From a virus (lineage: Duplodnaviria; Caudoviricetes), in IMG/VR virus record IMGVR_UViG_3300031450_000014, positions 1-27,592 of that record: a DNA stretch of 27,592 bases; one strand, written 5' to 3'. Below the pieces are notes generated by a model. That model did not search any database. It was given only the letters and a program-made list of their open reading frames with translations, and was not told the DNA's origin. A program made the position numbers and the translations under genes. Below are positions 2,297 to 16,900 of this stretch, in pieces (within the stretch, counting starts at the first letter, position 1; each line of letters begins with the position of its first letter).

Positions 2297-2317
2297 GGGA
2301 GACGTGACGCCGTGCTG

Positions 2318-2353
2318 ACGACAAACGCTGCGCGTCGCCGTAGGTTCGAGCTA
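2318..2353 (+). promoter_or_regulatory. Repressor promoter (PRM-like), probably giving leaderless mRNA
   Basis: TAGGTT at 2341-2346 lies 7 nt before ATG 2354; weak -35 (ACGACA at 17 bp spacing); no SD. Confidence 0.55.
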
Positions 2354-2803
2354 ATGGCGGCTGAGCACGCGGAGGCGCTTGCCGCTCGAATCGCGGAGCG
2401 GCGCAAGGAACTCCGCCTGAGTCAGGGGGAGGTCGCCGCTCGGTTCGCCAGCTTGAGCGTCAACAAGGACTACATCTCGCGGTGGGAGCGCTCGCAAAAT
2501 CTACCCAGCCCGGAGCACCTCGAAGGGTTAGCGAGGGCGCTCGAAACGACGGTCGCCGATCTGGTTGGCGGCCCATTGCGGCCAGAGCAGAACGGGCAGA
2601 CGCCCGACCTCATGGCGACGGTCAGCCCGAACGGCTCCCAGCTCGCTCGCGTCGAGGAGCTGCTTACCGAAGCGCTACAGCTTCTCCGTGGCCTTCACGA
2701 GGAGGATGCGGCATCGACCGCAGAAGGGGAAGGCCCGCCGCCCGAGACGCTGCCCGGTGAATCCGACGAAGCCGAGCCCGGGTCGGCTCGGGCAGACCAG
2801 TGA
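2354..2803 (+). CDS. CI-like immunity repressor (XRE HTH, short zipper, acidic tail)
   Basis: RIAERRKELRLSQGEVA...YISRWERSQNLP; divergent to cro. ATG 2354 is preferred over GTG 2312 from promoter geometry. Confidence 0.85.
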   Translation: MAAEHAEALAARIAERRKELRLSQGEVAARFASLSVNKDYISRWERSQNLPSPEHLEGLARALETTVADLVGGPLRPEQNGQTPDLMATVSPNGSQLARVEELLTEALQLLRGLHEEDAASTAEGEGPPPETLPGESDEAEPGSARADQ

Positions 2804-2974: not shown

Positions 2975-3523
2975 ATGACCAAGACGATCGCGGCTTCCCT
3001 CGTCGCAATCCTCCTCTTTGCGGGACTCGTCGCCGTCGGAGCGCTCGCTTCGCCATCCAGCGACAAACAGGCCAGTTCGGCCGCGACCAAGCGGGGGCCC
3101 CGCGGCAAGCGAGGCCCCCGCGGACCCATCGGCCCTCAAGGACTACGCGGGTTCACCGGCGCCACAGGTGCGCCTGGTGCGCCGGGTGCACCCGGCGTCG
3201 TCGGGCTGGTAACCGTGGATGCGGTCGTGCGTGTCCCCGCCAGGATGTCCGGTGGCCCGCAAGCGTTCTGTCCAGCCGGCACGTCGGTCGTGGGCTCAGC
3301 CTTCAACGCTTCCATATCGACCGTGGCGTTCGTCCAGTTCTTCGGTAATTCGGTCGGCGGGTTCTTCTTCAACGACTCGAGTATCGGCGTTGACGTGGAG
3401 GTGCAGGCGCGCTGCGCTCAGTTGCCAGCGGGGGCGGTCGCCGCGAGCAGTGGTCGCACGGCAGCACGCCGGACGTTCCAGAGGGAGGGCACCCAGGCCC
3501 GTCGGCTGTCTGCCCGGCGCTGA
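2975..3523 (+). CDS. Secreted collagen-like protein with C-terminal Cys-pair beta domain (lysogenic-conversion candidate)
   Basis: AGGAG SD; signal peptide; about 12 Gly-X-Y triplets; CPAGTSVVG...QARC motif. Confidence 0.85.
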   Translation: MTKTIAASLVAILLFAGLVAVGALASPSSDKQASSAATKRGPRGKRGPRGPIGPQGLRGFTGATGAPGAPGAPGVVGLVTVDAVVRVPARMSGGPQAFCPAGTSVVGSAFNASISTVAFVQFFGNSVGGFFFNDSSIGVDVEVQARCAQLPAGAVAASSGRTAARRTFQREGTQARRLSARR

Positions 3524-3541
3524 AACGAAGCTCACCTGCCG

Positions 3542-3575
3542 TGGGCTCTCGGACGTCCACCGTGCGGGGGGCCCA
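3542..3575 (+). terminator. Hairpin, putative terminator of the plus-strand unit
   Basis: TGGGCTCTC...GGGGGCCCA stem whose G-U pairs work only on plus-strand RNA; 18 nt after stop 3523; no U tail. Confidence 0.45.
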
Positions 3576-3591
3576 GCAGCCGTTGTGGCCC

Positions 3592-3628
3592 AGAACGAGA
3601 AGCGCCCCCGGCTGAGTGCCGAGGGCGC
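3592..3628 (-). terminator. Intrinsic terminator of the late operon
   Basis: Minus strand GCGCCCTCGGC-ACTCA-GCCGGGGGCGC (11-bp stem, one G-U) followed by TTCTCGTTCT. Confidence 0.75.
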
Positions 3629-3667
3629 GAAGAGCCAGCTATACGACGACGGAAAGACCCCGTCTAT

Positions 3668-3778
3668 CTACCGCCGTCTGAGCGGCCGGCCGGCGAAGAG
3701 GAACAGCGCCAGGTCGATGACGTGAACGGCCGCGCGGGCGAAACGGTCCGCCAGATCCGGGCCCTGCGGAACGATCAC
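3668..3778 (-). CDS. 36-aa hydrophobic/cationic peptide (MIVPQGPDLADRFARAAVHVIDLALFLFAGRPLRRR)
   Basis: GTGA-coupled to the upstream stop; ends before the terminator. Confidence 0.5.
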   Translation of the reverse strand: MIVPQGPDLADRFARAAVHVIDLALFLFAGRPLRRR

Positions 3779-4077
3779 GCCGGCACCCACTCCCCGCCAC
3801 GAATGAAGCCATGGTGGCCGCACGTCCGGCAGAGCACAGACGGCTCGATGTGCAACGGGTCGAGCGAGTGGACAGTCCATCTTGCCCGCGGGCCGAGATC
3901 CGCTGTCTCCGGCACGTCGAACGTGACCGCGCCGCTGCACCGCCCACCCCCGTCTGGCCGAGGATGCGACTCGATCAGACCGGCCGTAGCCCCGCCGTAG
4001 GTCGTGAGCCGAATGCGGACCTCGTGTCCGAGATCGAGCACGCCGGCTTCGTCGGCGGGGCAGGGGTCGTAGCTCAT
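3775..4077 (-). CDS. DUF6527-like small Cys/His protein, 100 aa
   Basis: W...L.IEPSVLCRTCGHHGFIRGGEW motif; ATGA-coupled to the holin. Confidence 0.7.
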   Translation of the reverse strand: MSYDPCPADEAGVLDLGHEVRIRLTTYGGATAGLIESHPRPDGGGRCSGAVTFDVPETADLGPRARWTVHSLDPLHIEPSVLCRTCGHHGFIRGGEWVPA

Positions 4078-4289
4078 CGCCGAGGGAGCTCGGGCTGCAC
4101 CCTGTTGGGAGCCGCGTAGACGGGCAGGCCAAGGAACGCGAGGAGTAGGCCGAGGAGCGCGTCGCGATCCCACTGGCCGGTGACCGCCCCGACCACGACG
4201 TAGCCGGCGAGCGCACCGCCGCCGGCCGCGACGATGGCTTTCGCCTTGACCTGGAGGCGCGGGGGGAGTAGAGCGATAAGAGCGTTCAT
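4074..4289 (-). CDS. Holin (2 TM), 71 aa
   Basis: ATG 4289 coupled to the lysin stop; KAKAIVA plus two hydrophobic segments and a VYAAPN end typical of actinophage holins. Confidence 0.8.
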   Translation of the reverse strand: MNALIALLPPRLQVKAKAIVAAGGGALAGYVVVGAVTGQWDRDALLGLLLAFLGLPVYAAPNRVQPELPRR

Positions 4290-4960
4290 GGTCGGTCCTT
4301 TCGCTTGAGTGCCGTCTTGATCGCCTCCGCGCGACGGCGCAGATACCGGAAGCGTGCCTCCGACCACCGCCCGGCGACGCGCTGGCGGATGCGTGCCAGC
4401 TCGGCGCGCAGACTCGTCTCTCGCGGATCGCCCGGCAAAATCGCGGCGCCGAGGCCCTTCATGCGACCCCACCACCGAACACGGTCGTCCCACCCGTTGA
4501 AGCCGCCGTTGATGCGTCGCGTGATCTCGCGGAAGTCGCCGCGGTCGGCCAACTCATTGAGGCCTCGTGTCCGCCAGAACCATGCGGCGATACGGAATCC
4601 CACCTTGGGCGTGGCGGCCAGCCCGGGGTTACGCTCGAGCGGCACGCGGAGCGCCTGCCCAGCGGCACGGTAGTTCGACCGGCCAGTGAGCTGAATGGGC
4701 CCGCGGCCCTTGTAGCGTCGCCCGTCGCCCGCCCGGGTGTTGCCGAGATCGCGCCGTCCCTCATACGCGGCGCCGGAGGCGATCTCCTCCCAGTAGTAGA
4801 GACCAGCGCTCTCATGCGCCACCTGCGCCAGGAAAGCCGCGGCGCGCCTACTCGTGGTGATCTTCGCCTCGCTCATCGCTGCACTCAGCAGCGGGGCGTA
4901 AGACTCCGCTTTGTCGGCGCTTACGTTGGGGAAGGCTCGACGGAGCGTCGCGGCGTTCAT
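4286..4960 (-). CDS. GH19 (chitinase/lysozyme-fold) endolysin, 224 aa
   Basis: FLAQVAHES, YEGRRDLGN, YKGRGPIQLTGRSNY, ITRRINGG motifs; start ATG 4960. Confidence 0.93.
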   Translation of the reverse strand: MNAATLRRAFPNVSADKAESYAPLLSAAMSEAKITTSRRAAAFLAQVAHESAGLYYWEEIASGAAYEGRRDLGNTRAGDGRRYKGRGPIQLTGRSNYRAAGQALRVPLERNPGLAATPKVGFRIAAWFWRTRGLNELADRGDFREITRRINGGFNGWDDRVRWWGRMKGLGAAILPGDPRETSLRAELARIRQRVAGRWSEARFRYLRRRAEAIKTALKRKDRP

Positions 4961-5049
4961 CCTCGCCACCTGTCCTCGCGCGAGCCCGTGCGCAGACGCC
5001 GCACGAGCCAGCGGATCCCGTCGAGCAAGCTGCCCAGGTAGACCCTCAT
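4957..5049 (-). CDS. 30-aa cationic amphipathic peptide (MRVYLGSLLDGIRWLVRRLRTGSREDRWRG)
   Basis: ATGA overlaps at both ends exactly bridge the two lysin genes. Confidence 0.65.
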   Translation of the reverse strand: MRVYLGSLLDGIRWLVRRLRTGSREDRWRG

Positions 5050-5678
5050 GCCAGCTTCCTGCCCGCCACTGCGTCGCGGAGAAACCCGAGGCGCTTCCGC
5101 TCGCGCGCGGTCGGGTTGCGCTTCGCCTTGAGCGCGCCGATCTTCTTTCGGAGGTAGTTCCGCTTGATCGAGTTCGCGCGCTTCTTCTCCGACTCGAGCC
5201 ACTTGCCGCGGCGACCGGCGCCCGAGCGGATCGCGGCGAGCTCCTTGACGAGGCGCTCGTCGTCCTCGTCCAAGACGTCGTACGGGTCCTCCTGGCCGAA
5301 CTTGGCGAGGATCTGCGCGCTCGACACGCCCTGAAACTCCAGGTGCCAGGACTCGCCACGCACGGTCCTGACGAGCCGCACGCCCTTGCTGGCCGCGTAC
5401 GCGATCAGCGCGTCCGTGCCCTCCAAGTCCCCGGCGTGATCCCAGCGGCCGACGCGGATGTGCGGCGCGGTCGTGCTCGGCTTGGCAGTGAGCGGGCGGT
5501 TCGGCCGCCGCGTGCCGTCTGGGTACATGTTCTGCGCGTAGAGCACCCCCTGCTCGCCCATGTTGCGGCGCAGCGAGTTGCAGGAGAACTGCACACCGTC
5601 GCGGCGGGCCGAGCCAAGGAAAGCCGCCCATTCGACTGAGCAGGCCTTCCCGTCGAACTTGACGTAGCGAACGGACAT
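5046..5678 (-). CDS. M15-like Zn peptidase endolysin, 210 aa
   Basis: S.RR...Q..LY, H...AGD and ESWH motifs; GGGAGG SD. Confidence 0.8.
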   Translation of the reverse strand: MSVRYVKFDGKACSVEWAAFLGSARRDGVQFSCNSLRRNMGEQGVLYAQNMYPDGTRRPNRPLTAKPSTTAPHIRVGRWDHAGDLEGTDALIAYAASKGVRLVRTVRGESWHLEFQGVSSAQILAKFGQEDPYDVLDEDDERLVKELAAIRSGAGRRGKWLESEKKRANSIKRNYLRKKIGALKAKRNPTARERKRLGFLRDAVAGRKLA

Positions 5679-5744
5679 GTCTAAGCCTCCCGTTGAGGGT
5701 GAGGTCGAGGGTTGAGGGTTGCTGCGGTTCAGCGGTGGTGGGCG

Positions 5745-5790
5745 TGTCTAGCCCTTGACAACTAGGCGTCTAGTCCTATACACTCCATGC
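5745..5790 (+). promoter_or_regulatory. Cassette promoter with operator palindromes
   Basis: TTGACA 5755-5760, 18 bp, TACACT 5779-5784; ACTAG-gcgt-CTAGT in the spacer; TGTCTAG..CTTGACA overlapping the -35. Confidence 0.85.
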
Positions 5791-5820
5791 ATGGAGTCCA
5801 CCACCACCAAGGAGCGCCAG

Positions 5821-6039
5821 ATGACCACCACCACCATCGAAGATGCGGTTCGCGACCTGGAGCGCGACGACGTGCTCGCCACGCTTCAGGAGGTCGAGTG
5901 GTACGGCGACAACCCCGCCAAGGTGACGACCACCGATCCGGACGACGCTCCGCTTACGGTGGTCAACCACCACGGCGAAGCCCTTACCGGCATCGAGGCG
6001 GCAGGGGAGCTCCGCAGCTACCTCCACACCATCCGATGA
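5821..6039 (+). CDS. Acidic hypothetical protein, 72 aa (alternative leaderless start at 5791)
   Basis: AAGGAG 6 nt before ATG 5821; ATGA-coupled to the HTH gene. Confidence 0.8.
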   Translation: MTTTTIEDAVRDLERDDVLATLQEVEWYGDNPAKVTTTDPDDAPLTVVNHHGEALTGIEAAGELRSYLHTIR

Positions 6040-6244
6040 GCATGGCTGCTGCCTCTGGCGTGCGCGAAGACCTCTCCGAGGCCGGCGAGCGTCTACTCCG
6101 CGCCCAGAACGACCGCGCCGAGGCGATCACCGACATCACCCGCCTCGCCAGCCAAGCGCAGAAAGCGGGCGTGTCGATCGCTGAGATCGCCCGGCTTGCG
6201 ACCGTGACCCGCCAGACCGTCTACAGCTTGATTCGCGGTCGCGC

Positions 6245-6248
<4 letters not shown>
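6036..6248 (+). CDS. Small HTH DNA-binding protein, 70 aa
   Basis: N-terminal helix plus GVSIAEIARLATVTRQTVYSLI HTH. Confidence 0.85.
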
Positions 6249-8525
<2,277 letters not shown>

Positions 8526-8539
8526 TGGGCCTCCAAGTC

Positions 8540-9295
8540 TTAGGGTGTGCCGATGCGGAACACCGAGAACTGCCTGCGAAGAAGCGGCGACGTGATAGGC
8601 CCGCCTTCACAGGACCACCGAACCTGGATGGTCCTGCTCCCGGCAGGTGGCCGCCAAGCGTGCAGGATGGATACCGTTCCGCCGTCACTGCCCGCCGTTA
8701 GATCAACCCGACGGTAGGAAGCAGGCAACAGGACGCCATTGTCATAAATACCAAAGTCGACGTAGTAAGCGCTGTTGTTCTCCTCGTTGTACAGACCAGC
8801 CGAAAAGAACGCGATGAGCGGATAACCGCCGTAGTCGCCCGTCTGGCTCATCTGTGGCACCACTGCCATGCTTTGACCATCGATGAGTGGGGCATTAGGT
8901 CCAGAGGTAGTTGGATTTGAGGTAAAGACATCTGTGAACTGCAACACAGCGACCGCCGCATTCGCCGCGTTGGCCGCCCCTTGCGCAGCGTTGATTGCCG
9001 GGTTGATCTGGTTCGGAATAATGTTGTTGGTGATGTTGTCGGCCGCGTTGAGCGCAATGCCAGCGTTTGTGTTGGCCGTATTGGCCGCGGTCTCCGCCCG
9101 CCCAGCCGCCTCGTTCGCCGCATTGGCCGATAGCTGTGCAGCGACAGCCGCGGCCTCTGCGTCCTTGATCGCCTTCTCCGCCTGCGCAACCCGCGCGCTC
9201 AGCTTGTCCGCCAACACCAGCTCCGAGTTTCTTAGCGACTGCGCCTGATCCCGCAGCCCGCGGATGACGCTCGTCTGACGCGGCACCCGGCCCAC
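8540..9295 (-). CDS. Minor tail protein (Ala/Asn coiled coil plus beta-sandwich)
   Basis: Long Ala-rich helix then a beta-rich C-terminus; follows the Tal-like gene. Confidence 0.7.
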   Translation of the reverse strand: MGRVPRQTSVIRGLRDQAQSLRNSELVLADKLSARVAQAEKAIKDAEAAAVAAQLSANAANEAAGRAETAANTANTNAGIALNAADNITNNIIPNQINPAINAAQGAANAANAAVAVLQFTDVFTSNPTTSGPNAPLIDGQSMAVVPQMSQTGDYGGYPLIAFFSAGLYNEENNSAYYVDFGIYDNGVLLPASYRRVDLTAGSDGGTVSILHAWRPPAGSRTIQVRWSCEGGPITSPLLRRQFSVFRIGTP

Positions 9296-13959: not shown

Positions 13960-16900
13960 CGGAATCCCCCCTGCTTGCGCAACTGCTGCTCCATCAGCGC
14001 GACGGTGTGCCGCGGGTCCGGCTGCGCCCCGGCGAGCGCGGGCGGCACGTTCAGGTTGAACGTGCGCTGGTCGTTGGTGACCGGCCCCGATGACGCGGCC
14101 ATGGCGCCGGCGCCCCCGGCGAGGACGGGGACGGCCGCGAGCTCCGCCACGAGCGCCTTGTCGAGCGCGCCAGCCCCGAGCTGGAGGCCGGCGGCGAAGT
14201 TCTCCATCGTCGCCCGGCCAGCGCCCTTCAGATTGCGGAGCGGCGACCGAGGGTCCTTCGGCTCCGAGCCGGGGAGGAGATTACGGATGCTGTCAGCGAT
14301 GCCTTTCACGCGGTCCCAGATCCCGCGGGCGAGACTCGCGATGCCGTTCCCGAACGCGCTCATGATTTTCTGCCCAGCCTCGTAGAAGTCGTTGGCGAGC
14401 CCGCGGATGAACCCGATGGCCTGCCTCACGGGCCCGGTGACGGCCTCCTTGATCGACTCCCACTTGCGCTCGGCGACGATCTTGATGGCCTCCCAGATCA
14501 CGCCGAGGTCACGCTTGAAATCTGACCACTTGTCGCCGATCCAGCCGATGGCGGCGCGGACCGGATCGATCGTCACCGACTTGATGCCGCCCCAGATCGT
14601 TGAGGCGACCGTCTTGATCCCGTTCCAGATCGTCGAGAGCGCGGACTTCGCGCCCTCCCACTGAGACTTCGCGAGGCCCACGCCGGCGGTGATAGGCGCG
14701 GTGATGGCGGTCTTGATGCCGCCCCAGATCGTTGAGGCGACCGTCTTGATCCCGTTCCAGATCGTGTCGAGGGCGGTCTTCGCCCCTCCCCACAACGTCT
14801 TGACCGCCGTGACCGCCGCGTTGACCGGCGTGGTGATGAGCGTCTTGATGACGCCCCACGCGATCGAGGCGACGGTCTTGATGCCCTCCCAGATCGTCGA
14901 GAGAACGTCCTTCGCGGTCTGCCACGCCGTGGTGATCGCAGAGGCCGCCCCGGCGGCGCTGGGGAGCGTCCCGGCGAACGCCTGCCCGATTCCGTAGATC
15001 AGCCCGCCGAGCCCCGTGAAAATCTGGAGGAGCGGCATCAGCGCGGCCGTGACCTTGATGACAGCACCGAGGATCGCGTTGATGACCCCGACGAGAATCG
15101 CGAGACCTGGGGCGACCGCCTGGATGATCTGGAAGAACAAGACCGTCAGCCTCGCGATGAAGGTCACCAGCTCTTTGACGAGCGGCATGACGTCGGTGAA
15201 GAACTGCTTGATCGTGGAGGACCCCTTGGCAGAGTTCATCCAGCCTGCGAGCGCCTGGGCGCCCTTGGTCAGCCACTCCACGAGGCCCTGACCGGATGGG
15301 GCGGCAGCCTTGAAGAACGCGAGGAAGACACTGGCGATCGCCCCGCCGAGCCTCAGCCACGACCCGAGCTGCGACACCAGTCCGCCAATGACCTCGCGCA
15401 TCCGGCCGGCGTCGCTCGTCCCCTTCGCCCAACCGCCGAACAGCTTGGCCACCTCCTTCATCCCCGCGATCAGTAGGGGCATGGCGGCCACCGCAATGTT
15501 GCGCAGGATCCGCAGGAAAGAAATGAAGATCGACGAGAACGGCCCCATGAGACTCGTGGCCCCCCGAATGAAGACGAGGAACGCGCTGGTCCACTCGGGG
15601 CGAGCGAACTCCCGGCCAAGCTGAGAGAGCACCCCGCCGATGCGGGAGCCAAGCTGCGTGAACGCGCCGCGCAGCGGGGCCATGATCTGCGGCAGGCGCT
15701 GGATGGCGCTGGTGAGCCCACCGAAGATCGCGTCGGTCGCCGGGCCAAAATACCCCTTCAGGTACGCCCCGGTGCTCTTCAGCGCGCCGAGGAACTTCAG
15801 CTCAGCGCCCGACAGCTCGTCGGTCGCCGCCTTGGCCTTGAGCGCGCCGGCGGTCGCTGCGCCGGCAGCAGCCGTACCCGCGGTGGCAGCGCGGCGCCTT
15901 GCCTCCGCGAGCTGGTCGTTGGCATTCGCGAGCGCCTGGACGGCGGCGACCACACTGGGCGCCCCAGCGACGCCGAGCTGGTCAAGGCGGTTCGATTCGC
16001 GCGTGGCCTCCGCGGAAGCCCGACGGCTGTCGGCCAGGGCGTCCGTGGCGGAGATCACCCCGGCCGCGCCGGCGATGCCCGCCTTCTCGAGCGCCGCGTA
16101 TTCGCGGGTCGCGTCGTTGAGGCCGACGCGCGCACTGCGCAGCGCCTCCGCGGCGGCGAGAACGCCAGGGGCCCCCGCCACCCCGGCCTCCTGCGCAACC
16201 CGCGCCTCGTCGGTCGCAATCTTGAGGTCCTTCTGCGCCTCGGTCACGCCGACCACCGCGTCGCGGTACGGCCCGTAGGCGCCGATCCCCTGCTCGCGAA
16301 ACGCCTGCTCGTCCTTCTGCGCCTTCGTCAGGTTTCGCGTGGCGTCGGTTTGCGCGTTCGTGGCGTTTAGCTCGGTGAGCTTCGCCGACCGGACGCGGAG
16401 GATCGCCTTTTCGAGCTCCGTCGTCTGGTCGGCGGTGAGCTTGATCCCCGCGGCGGAAAGGGACTGGCCCAGCAGGTCGTCGCTGAAGTCGACGTCGAGG
16501 TTGGTCAGCTTCGCGAACAGGTCGTCGACGCCGGCTCCGGTGAGCTTCGCGCCCTTGAGGAAATCGGCGAGCTCGCTCTGCGCCTCGCGGGTGTTGAAGT
16601 CCGCCTCGTCGACCGACTGGTTGGCATCGGCGAGGCCTCGTACGGCGTCCGCGGTCTCTTCTGCCGCGTCGGCGATCGCCTTGAACGCGGCGACGGACTC
16701 GCGCTCGAGCGTCTGATTGGCGGTAACGAGTCGAGCGGCGGCGTCGACCTCGCGCTGCACGGCCTGGGTGATTGTGCGGCTTGCCTCCGCGCGCGCCTCC
16801 TGGAGGCTCTTGATCGCGTCCCGCACGTCGCGGGTCGCGTCAGCCTCGGCGCGTCGCGCGTCGGCAATGTCGGCTGTGGCCTGGCGCCGCGCGTCGGCGA

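Follow-up and report, generated by a model that had tools for sequence, protein, structure and literature searches.

A reverse-strand two-gene unit flanked by a 14-nt direct repeat in a phage late operon, a candidate moron-type accessory unit

The late operon of the phage described here is interrupted by a short unit that reads in the opposite direction and lies between two exact copies of a 14-nt sequence. This raises the question of whether the unit arrived as a mobile element, was acquired by recombination between phages or is an old resident whose flanking repeat arose by chance. The window, i.e. the whole stretch of DNA analysed (27,592 bp), is IMG/VR record IMGVR_UViG_3300031450_000014 and covers ~33% of the estimated genome; two rock-metagenome runs match it word for word and are its probable source. 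Most of the window is occupied by a minus-strand late operon, running from 27.5 kb down to 4.07 kb in the order terminase, portal, head genes, a 1,454-aa tape measure and minor tail proteins, and then the collagen-like genes and the lysis genes. The phage belongs to a lineage without cultured relatives, whose hosts are probably high-GC actinobacteria. A repressor-like gene and a divergent Cro-like HTH ORF (read by eye at about 2232-2040) make up a CI/Cro-like switch at about 2040-2803, suggesting that the phage is probably temperate. The genes and spacer that form the setting of the unit are:

2312-2803, plus strand: repressor-like XRE gene, from a domain search
4286-5041, minus strand: GH19 endolysin gene, following the peptidase gene, from Pfam and PHROGs
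5046-5678, minus strand: gene for a putative VanY-like (M15) cell-wall peptidase, first of the lysis module, with homologues at 58-79% identity
5679-5728, minus strand: 50-nt spacer ahead of the peptidase ATG at 5678, with a GGGAGG Shine-Dalgarno sequence, from sequence reading
6245-6979, minus strand: ORF of the collagen-like repeat gene next to the unit (Collagen PF01391, E 1.1e-9)
6880-7683, minus strand: first of the two collagen-like repeat genes of the late operon

The collagen-like gene next to the unit probably starts at ATG 6883, overlapping the stop codon of the upstream gene, and its product has a hydrophobic helix at the N terminus, then Gly-X-Y repeats, and closes with a Cys-containing tail of 17 aa whose last residues are AHHR; tail-fibre PHROGs match it through the repeats only. 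The VanY call for the peptidase is weak (three of five family members, best E 0.011). The late genes are otherwise tightly packed, with stop/start overlaps at 6880-6883, 7680-7683 and 9295. The sole 566-nt gap among them is the site of the unit, and would shrink to 50 nt without it, this 50-nt spacer being presumed to represent the original intergenic region. The unit and its boundaries comprise the following features:

5731-5744, no strand assigned: left repeat copy, followed on the minus strand by an in-register TGA (5731-5729)
5744-5754 and 5766-5776, plus strand: two GYGTCTAGYCC direct repeats of 11 nt, 22 nt apart, a putative operator
5745-6246, plus strand: 502-bp insert between the repeat copies, carrying a promoter-like site, a small ORF and an HTH gene
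5755-5784, plus strand: sigma-70-like promoter TTGACA-18-TACACT, 10 of 12 consensus positions, predicted by consensus match only
5791-6039, plus strand: cargo ORF with two possible starts, supported by codon-position GC
6036-6248, plus strand: gene for a 70-aa HTH protein (HTH_28/HTH_7, phrog_7061)
6247-6260, no strand assigned: right repeat copy, on the minus strand the last codons A-H-H-R plus the first base of the stop codon
6251-6274, no strand assigned: hairpin with a 10-bp stem and a 4-nt loop, lacking a U-tract, in which the right repeat copy pairs with 6265-6274

The anatomy of the locus, as claimed in the initial annotation, was upheld in its particulars. A window-wide search for AGCGGTGGTGGGCG returned exactly two occurrences at up to one mismatch, those at 5731-5744 and 6247-6260, where 0.03 occurrences would be expected and at least two copies appeared in none of 100 shuffles; tolerance of three mismatches added only chance-level matches (18 found vs 9.8 +/- 2.9 expected), so that no further copy stands out from the background. 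Similarity between the flanks of the two copies ends on both sides immediately beyond the 14 nt. Both reading registers were likewise borne out by the sequence: read on the minus strand, the collagen-like gene has its last codons (...C-A-H-H-R) in the right copy, which runs into the present stop codon of that gene, TAG 6247-6245, while the left copy, presumed to be a vestige or a duplicate of the 3' end of that gene, runs into an in-frame TGA. With 516 bp deleted, the collagen-like gene indeed ends 50 nt ahead of the peptidase gene, and the plus-strand stop codon of the HTH gene (TAG, 6246-6248) does take its A and G from the right repeat copy. The reported lack of a transposase, an integrase and terminal inverted repeats agrees with the Pfam and PHROGs searches of the unit and with an inverted-repeat search of 5679-6300, in which the best pair (18 nt, 72% complementary) is non-terminal. 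The GC content of the insert (0.61-0.69) is near that of its flanks except for a dip at the promoter. The interpretation in the initial annotation is partly supported: the anatomy looks like that of an insertion, a self-contained reverse-strand unit bounded by what appears to be the duplicated 3' end of a neighbouring gene.

The promoter-like site of the unit is directed against the late genes; its -10 element could alternatively be TATACA at 5777-5782, and a promoter scan of positions 3500-8000 found 2 sites against 0.1 expected. The two GYGTCTAGYCC repeats are located around the -35 element and the spacer, a placement that would suit an operator. Window-wide this motif is not rarer than chance (3 matches vs 2.5 expected). 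The window contains fewer CTAG tetranucleotides than expected (22 vs 80), and three of these 22 sites fall within 5744-5776, a fourth in the unit being found at 6245. RNA folding of the promoter and leader was not significant (z -1.4), and a terminator scan found none after the HTH gene. The hairpin at 6251-6274, located just past the HTH stop codon and inside the last codons of the collagen-like gene, could act as a terminator or as a recombination-prone structure; the fold of the whole 151 nt around it was not significant (z -1.8), and Rfam and tRNA scans of the region returned nothing relevant. The two ORFs of the unit display the GC1/GC2/GC3 pattern of coding sequence (0.68/0.44/0.84 for the cargo and 0.68/0.54/0.83 for the HTH gene), which is lacking in the alternative frames of the same stretch. 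Their overall GC content is 0.65-0.68, compared with 0.68-0.73 in the neighbouring genes, and their GC3 of 0.83-0.84 is inside the range of the phage's own genes, suggesting that any donor would have been a similar high-GC phage.

The cargo ORF has two candidate start codons. ATG 5791 would yield 82 aa and lies 6 nt after the -10 element, and so could be a leaderless start; leaderless mRNAs are common in actinobacteria. ATG 5821, which is positioned behind AAGGAG and was chosen by the public gene call (P0009), would yield 72 aa with a pI of 4.3 and a net charge of -10. The stop codon of the cargo and the start codon of the HTH gene are joined in an ATGA overlap at 6036-6039, which suggests that translation of the two genes is coupled. 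No match to the cargo was found in Pfam, PHROGs, NCBIfam, PADLOC or PDB sequences, and no homologue in a protein search of 5.8 billion clusters or in the ESM Atlas. Its single-sequence structural model reached a pLDDT of 70, with a best Foldseek E of 0.75 and a best Z score of 3.3 in the VIA wide search. By its sequence the cargo is an orphan acidic protein without a toxin-family match, and it does not look like the RNase toxins.

The HTH protein matches the Pfam families HTH_28 and HTH_7, in all cases below gathering scores, phrog_7061 over its full length (E 7.6e-8) and the DNA invertase family phrog_125 (E 0.006). Its predicted structure (pLDDT 94.9) comprises one long helix, extending over residues 3-43, and a C-terminal helix-turn-helix, which in the model resembles the resolvase/transposase type. 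The Foldseek matches, to the DNA-binding ends of serine recombinases, DeoR and IstA, were weak, with none at E <= 0.001 and those to 2r0q, 5cy1 and 8b4h all at E > 0.1. The build of the protein recalls the E-helix and DNA-binding end of a serine recombinase, and it has relatives next to IS1595-family transposases; both observations touch on the possibility, weighed below, that it serves as a handle for a recombinase. Homology searches showed the protein to belong, at the level of sequence, to a small family of actinobacteria and phages: 62 small HTH relatives were recovered at E <= 1e-3 among 1.84 billion representative proteins, and the ESM Atlas groups it with clusters of proteins 60-72 aa long, the majority of them from Actinomycetota and phages.

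The relatives differ in their surroundings. P0002, located on a 34-kb contig, is 93% identical to the HTH protein over the shared part and ends at the same residue position, and the part upstream of it, 44 codons, is unrelated to anything in the window. That contig may therefore have a different cargo, or its HTH gene may occupy another setting. An identical HTH protein is encoded on a 40.7-kb contig, and P0004, the peptidase relative at 79% identity, on one of 1.6 kb. The initial annotation had proposed testing whether HTH homologues each sit in a promoter-cargo-HTH unit with direct repeats. No homologue of the whole unit was found in the collections searched, and the only close HTH relative has unrelated upstream sequence, so that the unit is not conserved as a whole. 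The class to which a Solirubrobacteraceae MAG encoding a peptidase relative belongs was also searched for the HTH gene (401 genomes), which gave four matches in three genomes, the best three of the four directly adjoining an IS1595-family transposase. The HTH proteins next to these transposases (68-69 aa) belong to the same family as that of the phage unit (39-47% identity, E about 2e-7) and share its layout of a long helix and a C-terminal HTH. Their loci carry a DDE transposase (PF12762, E 3e-40), whereas the phage unit has none, and two of them also have a conserved ORF of 250 aa downstream of the HTH gene, which in the phage unit is itself the downstream gene. No DNA similarity was detected between the cassette and these loci, and no convincing IS ends were found in the latter. 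A search of 401 genomes of the phylum with the HTH profile gave matches in 21, nearly all partial and inside larger regulators. At one of these matches (L013) two small HTH copies lie in tandem near an excisionase-like gene.

Other forms of the site were sought in phages, metagenomes and genomes. Among cultured phages, neither megablast of positions 4800-7400 nor tblastn of the peptidase, the HTH protein and two members of its family gave a match. Scans of IMG/VR with the peptidase, its alignment, the HTH protein, the HTH alignment, TerL and a 281-aa neighbour identified no relatives, the yield being limited to two TerL fragments at 34% identity, and the HTH query against JGI metagenome contigs recovered nothing but the present contig (2 mismatches in 12,210). 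No homologous whole unit was found in cultured phages, IMG/VR, JGI metagenome contigs or the protein collections. A genome scan with the peptidase alignment returned four loci, none of them a close phage relative. Prophage G036, which is very distant (37.5% identity in the peptidase, weak similarity in the tape measure), displays the same module order, with 30 nt between the peptidase gene and the preceding small membrane-protein gene; its 9 kb contain no reverse cassette and no match to the HTH protein or the cargo. The initial annotation had also called for a look for the joint of an excised circle or an empty site. The contigs of the two source runs hold the filled form only, with no joint skipping 5745-6246 and no alternative contig, a weak check given that contigs can hide rare variants. 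Extra depth at two bins in a first contig mapping was not reproduced in a second mapping and was discarded; in this second mapping a third run had nothing over 5560-6420.

Several known systems offer points of comparison. In the mycobacteriophage LRRHood, direct repeats of 29 bp enclose a 1.35-kb insert that includes a captured repressor gene; in related phages the repeat is single and lies at the very 3' end of a gene, and recombination with another phage is the origin that the authors prefer for the insert (PMC3029335, Pope et al. 2011). The two cases share a regulator-type gene, short exact direct repeats, a repeat copy at the 3' end of a neighbour and intact neighbours. They differ in repeat length (14 nt here vs 29 bp) and in the number of genes (two here vs four); moreover, the gene captured by LRRHood is known to encode the repressor of another phage cluster, and empty-site relatives are known there, whereas the searches made here returned no close phage relative. 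In the same source, a moron is described as an ORF with a promoter and a terminator that one genome has and a relative lacks (PMC3029335). Similar to the morons of lambdoid and actinobacterial phages known from such accounts, the unit has its own promoter, is inserted between late-operon genes at the tail/lysis border and would likely be expressed from the prophage; in contrast to them, its base composition is not deviant and a terminator could not be recognised. The ultra-small mycobacteriophage mobile elements MPME1 and MPME2 possess inverted repeats, and identical copies of them occupy several sites among near-identical phages; the elements add 6 bp next to IR-L and duplicate nothing (PMC3029335). 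On that description the unit resembles the MPMEs in its size of about 440-500 bp, its actinobacteriophage setting and its position between or at the ends of genes, and differs in being single-copy, in lacking inverted repeats and in its 14-nt duplication.

The reading favoured here, with somewhat more confidence than doubt, is that of a moron-type accessory unit whose flanking 14-nt repeat was likely left by recombination between phages and not by transposition. It is preferred because the anatomy is that of an insertion, because, the one duplication aside, there is no indication of a transposon and because LRRHood provides a precedent. The 93% conservation of the HTH protein in P0002 next to unrelated upstream sequence describes a mosaic joint of the kind made by recombination. 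One insertion cannot show a constant duplication length, and recombination explains the 14-nt duplication as well as transposition does. The two classic moron features named above, a terminator and deviant base composition, are lacking, which counts against this reading.

The most serious competitor, itself rather unlikely, holds that the cassette is an old resident of the phage lineage and that the left 14-mer matches the end of the collagen-like gene by chance. Markov simulations of the whole window (60 per order) gave a mean of 1.8 (order 1) or 2.25 (order 3) exact direct repeats of at least 14 nt at a spacing of 100-3000 nt. With about two such repeats expected by chance within 3 kb, the repeat alone is not unusual window-wide, and at least one other, unrelated and non-tandem pair, of 15 nt, does occur at 6946/9105 (among 60 of the 91 repeats). 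The 14-mer is G+C-rich, and GGTGGTGG-type words recur in the cassette; in addition, an empty site was seen in no relative, the searches having returned no close phage relative. Against chance stands the placement of the two copies exactly at the boundaries of the unit. When the 77-nt space left of the promoter was compared with the +/-20 nt around the HTH stop codon, a 14-mer common to both boundaries arose in 11 of 200,000 simulations, which becomes about 2e-3 once some 30 gene junctions are taken into account; this test is post hoc. The left copy, furthermore, is followed by an in-register stop codon, for which the chance is about 3 in 64 (about a 1-in-20 coincidence), and by a normal intergenic distance with a Shine-Dalgarno sequence. 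Judged from the post hoc boundary test, the 14-nt duplication is probably real.

If the duplication is real, it could also have been made by a non-autonomous mobile micro-element, moved in trans, that generates a 14-bp target-site duplication at gene ends. An exact flanking duplication with both neighbours intact, an HTH stop codon completed by target-derived AG, an HTH fold resembling the DNA-binding end of resolvases and transposases, distant homologues adjoining IS1595-family transposases (the best three of four matches, in 3 of 401 genomes) and a close relative, P0002, with a different upstream part would all suit such an element. The same P0002 shows a unit that is not conserved as a whole, and the absence of terminal inverted repeats, of a second copy in the window, of a homologous unit in the collections searched and of a joint skipping the insert in the contigs of the two source runs makes this a distinctly unlikely origin. 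The proposal of a mobile element of a new class is accordingly not supported, given the single copy, the missing inverted repeats and the lack of an empty-site or circle joint in those contigs. To our knowledge, a 14-bp duplication would moreover be unusual for bacterial IS elements and typical only of casposons; the IS1595 family duplicates 8 bp of its target, and casposons have inverted repeats and Cas1. A more elaborate version would make the unit a recombinase-less, self-regulated cassette bearing a 14-nt duplication, in which the HTH protein is the handle for a recombinase or transposase acting in trans and the cargo slot is swapped freely, with landings at the last codons of a gene and movement between actinobacteriophage genomes; this is very unlikely. 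Hardly probable at all is the integration of a circular cassette by a tyrosine recombinase whose gene would lie in another part of the phage genome or in the host, with the 14 nt as a common core and the two copies as attL/attR-like sites. Integrase-type recombination leaves identical short cores flanking an insert, as seen here, the recombinase could lie outside the window, which represents about a third of the genome, and the hairpin overlaps the right core. Nevertheless, no integrase or recombinase was identified in the ORFs scanned, no attC-like or dif-like features were recognised at the ends by eye, the core occurs nowhere else in the window and the contigs of the two source runs contain no excision joint.

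Under the moron-type explanation, the left 14 nt together with the TGA would be the original end of the collagen-like gene, and the junction before insertion would have read ...CACCACCGCTGA, followed by the 50-nt spacer and the peptidase gene. The unit may have entered by an out-of-register illegitimate crossover with a donor phage that already had the HTH gene beside the end of its collagen gene, such that 14 nt of the recipient's gene end were kept, or else by a short-homology, Campbell-type crossover inside the 14-mer. By either route the last 14 nt of the collagen-like gene would be doubled and both neighbours left intact. If this ordinary reading is true, the locus provides a clean example of phage mosaicism, with a recombination scar readable at single-base resolution; a novel mode of movement of small cassettes would be indicated only by additional, independent insertions that each bear a 14-nt duplication.

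As regards function, the arrangement of the unit suggests that it is likely expressed in the prophage and autoregulated by the HTH protein. It would be transcribed in the lysogen from its own promoter, which the HTH protein might repress through the two GYGTCTAGYCC repeats. The acidic product could then be a prophage-expressed accessory factor for exclusion of, or defence against, other phages, or alternatively the partner of the HTH protein in a toxin-antitoxin-like pair, the two roles being equally possible on the sequence. The orphan acidic protein and the small HTH protein together are thus a candidate for a prophage-encoded exclusion or toxin-antitoxin-like function. In RelS-RelI of Mycobacterium tuberculosis, a 78-aa effector is encoded upstream of a small HTH protein of 85 aa (PMC13284704). 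On that account the phage unit is similar in having two small genes in one operon, an actinobacterial setting and the HTH gene downstream, and differs in its acidic cargo (pI 4.3), which has no match to RelE/ParE or another toxin family. The likeness of the HTH family to RelI is itself marginal and partial: the family profile matches the RelI chain 9sdc_A with an E of 6.2e-4, in the HTH part only. The layout of toxin-upstream systems of the RelS-RelI, HigBA and MqsRA type, i.e. two overlapping small genes with the HTH gene downstream, is present in the unit.

Distant relatives of the cassette HTH lie directly beside IS1595-family DDE transposases in three genomes of the bacterial class searched, where the HTH proteins measure 68-69 residues. 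The loci extend over the following intervals:

L007, 1480-2712: HTH and IS1595-family transposase
L008, 535-2542: HTH and IS1595-family transposase
L009, 1489-2639: HTH and IS1595-family transposase

In L008 and L009 the stop codon of the transposase gene overlaps the start of the HTH gene. L007 and L008 display a TTGACA/TGTCAA palindrome upstream of the transposase start and, 3' of the HTH, a conserved 250-aa ORF that matched no Pfam family. This arrangement may represent an insertion sequence carrying passenger genes; alternatively, it may constitute a small module of defence or TA-like type. The small HTH family also occurs at L013, a locus recovered by profile search:

L013, 1501-2203: two tandem small-HTH-family paralogues of 66 and 69 aa

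The neighbours of these paralogues are a gene for an excisionase-like HTH protein and a large ORF (at least 476 aa), and the locus therefore looks like an integrative element or a defence island.

In the window itself, region 2040-2803 comprises a divergent gene pair resembling a CI/Cro switch:

2312-2803, plus strand: XRE-type repressor-like gene
~2232 to 2040, minus strand: XRE-like HTH ORF, read by eye

The 80-nt spacer of this pair contains a -35-like word, CCCTTGAC, which resembles that of the cassette promoter, together with two of the rare CTAG sites of the window. CTAG is strongly depleted over the whole window (22 sites versus ~80 expected from base composition); GATC (205) and TCGA (227) are common. 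Repeated sequences comprise:

1-200 (window start): GGC-rich array with a 9-nt period
6946-6960 and 9105-9119: exact 15-nt direct repeat, GCCGCCTCGTTCGCC
7012-7257: tandem or periodic 9/18-nt collagen repeats
14428-14925: three copies of a 132-nt repeat within the tape-measure gene

The two copies of the 15-nt repeat, located inside two different genes, were taken as a chance match, which served as a yardstick for the 14-mer flanking the cassette.

Three collagen-repeat proteins are encoded in the window:

2975-3523, plus strand: collagen-repeat protein
6245-6979, minus strand: collagen-repeat protein
6880-7683, minus strand: collagen-repeat protein

All three start with an N-terminal hydrophobic helix (signal or membrane anchor), and one additionally displays a coiled coil. 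Because their matches to tail-fibre PHROGs involve the Gly-X-Y repeats only, these proteins may be membrane-anchored rather than tail fibres. The corresponding position in the distant prophage at locus L039 is occupied by two small membrane proteins lacking collagen repeats.

The putative VanY-like peptidase (5046-5678, minus strand) and its homologues P0004-P0007 gave no above-threshold match to a Pfam or PHROG model; they share the conserved motifs PHIRVGRWDHA..D and E.WH.EF and a basic, coiled C-terminal tail. In P0008 this tail is joined to a GH19 domain, and it therefore constitutes a C-terminal module common to two lysin types.
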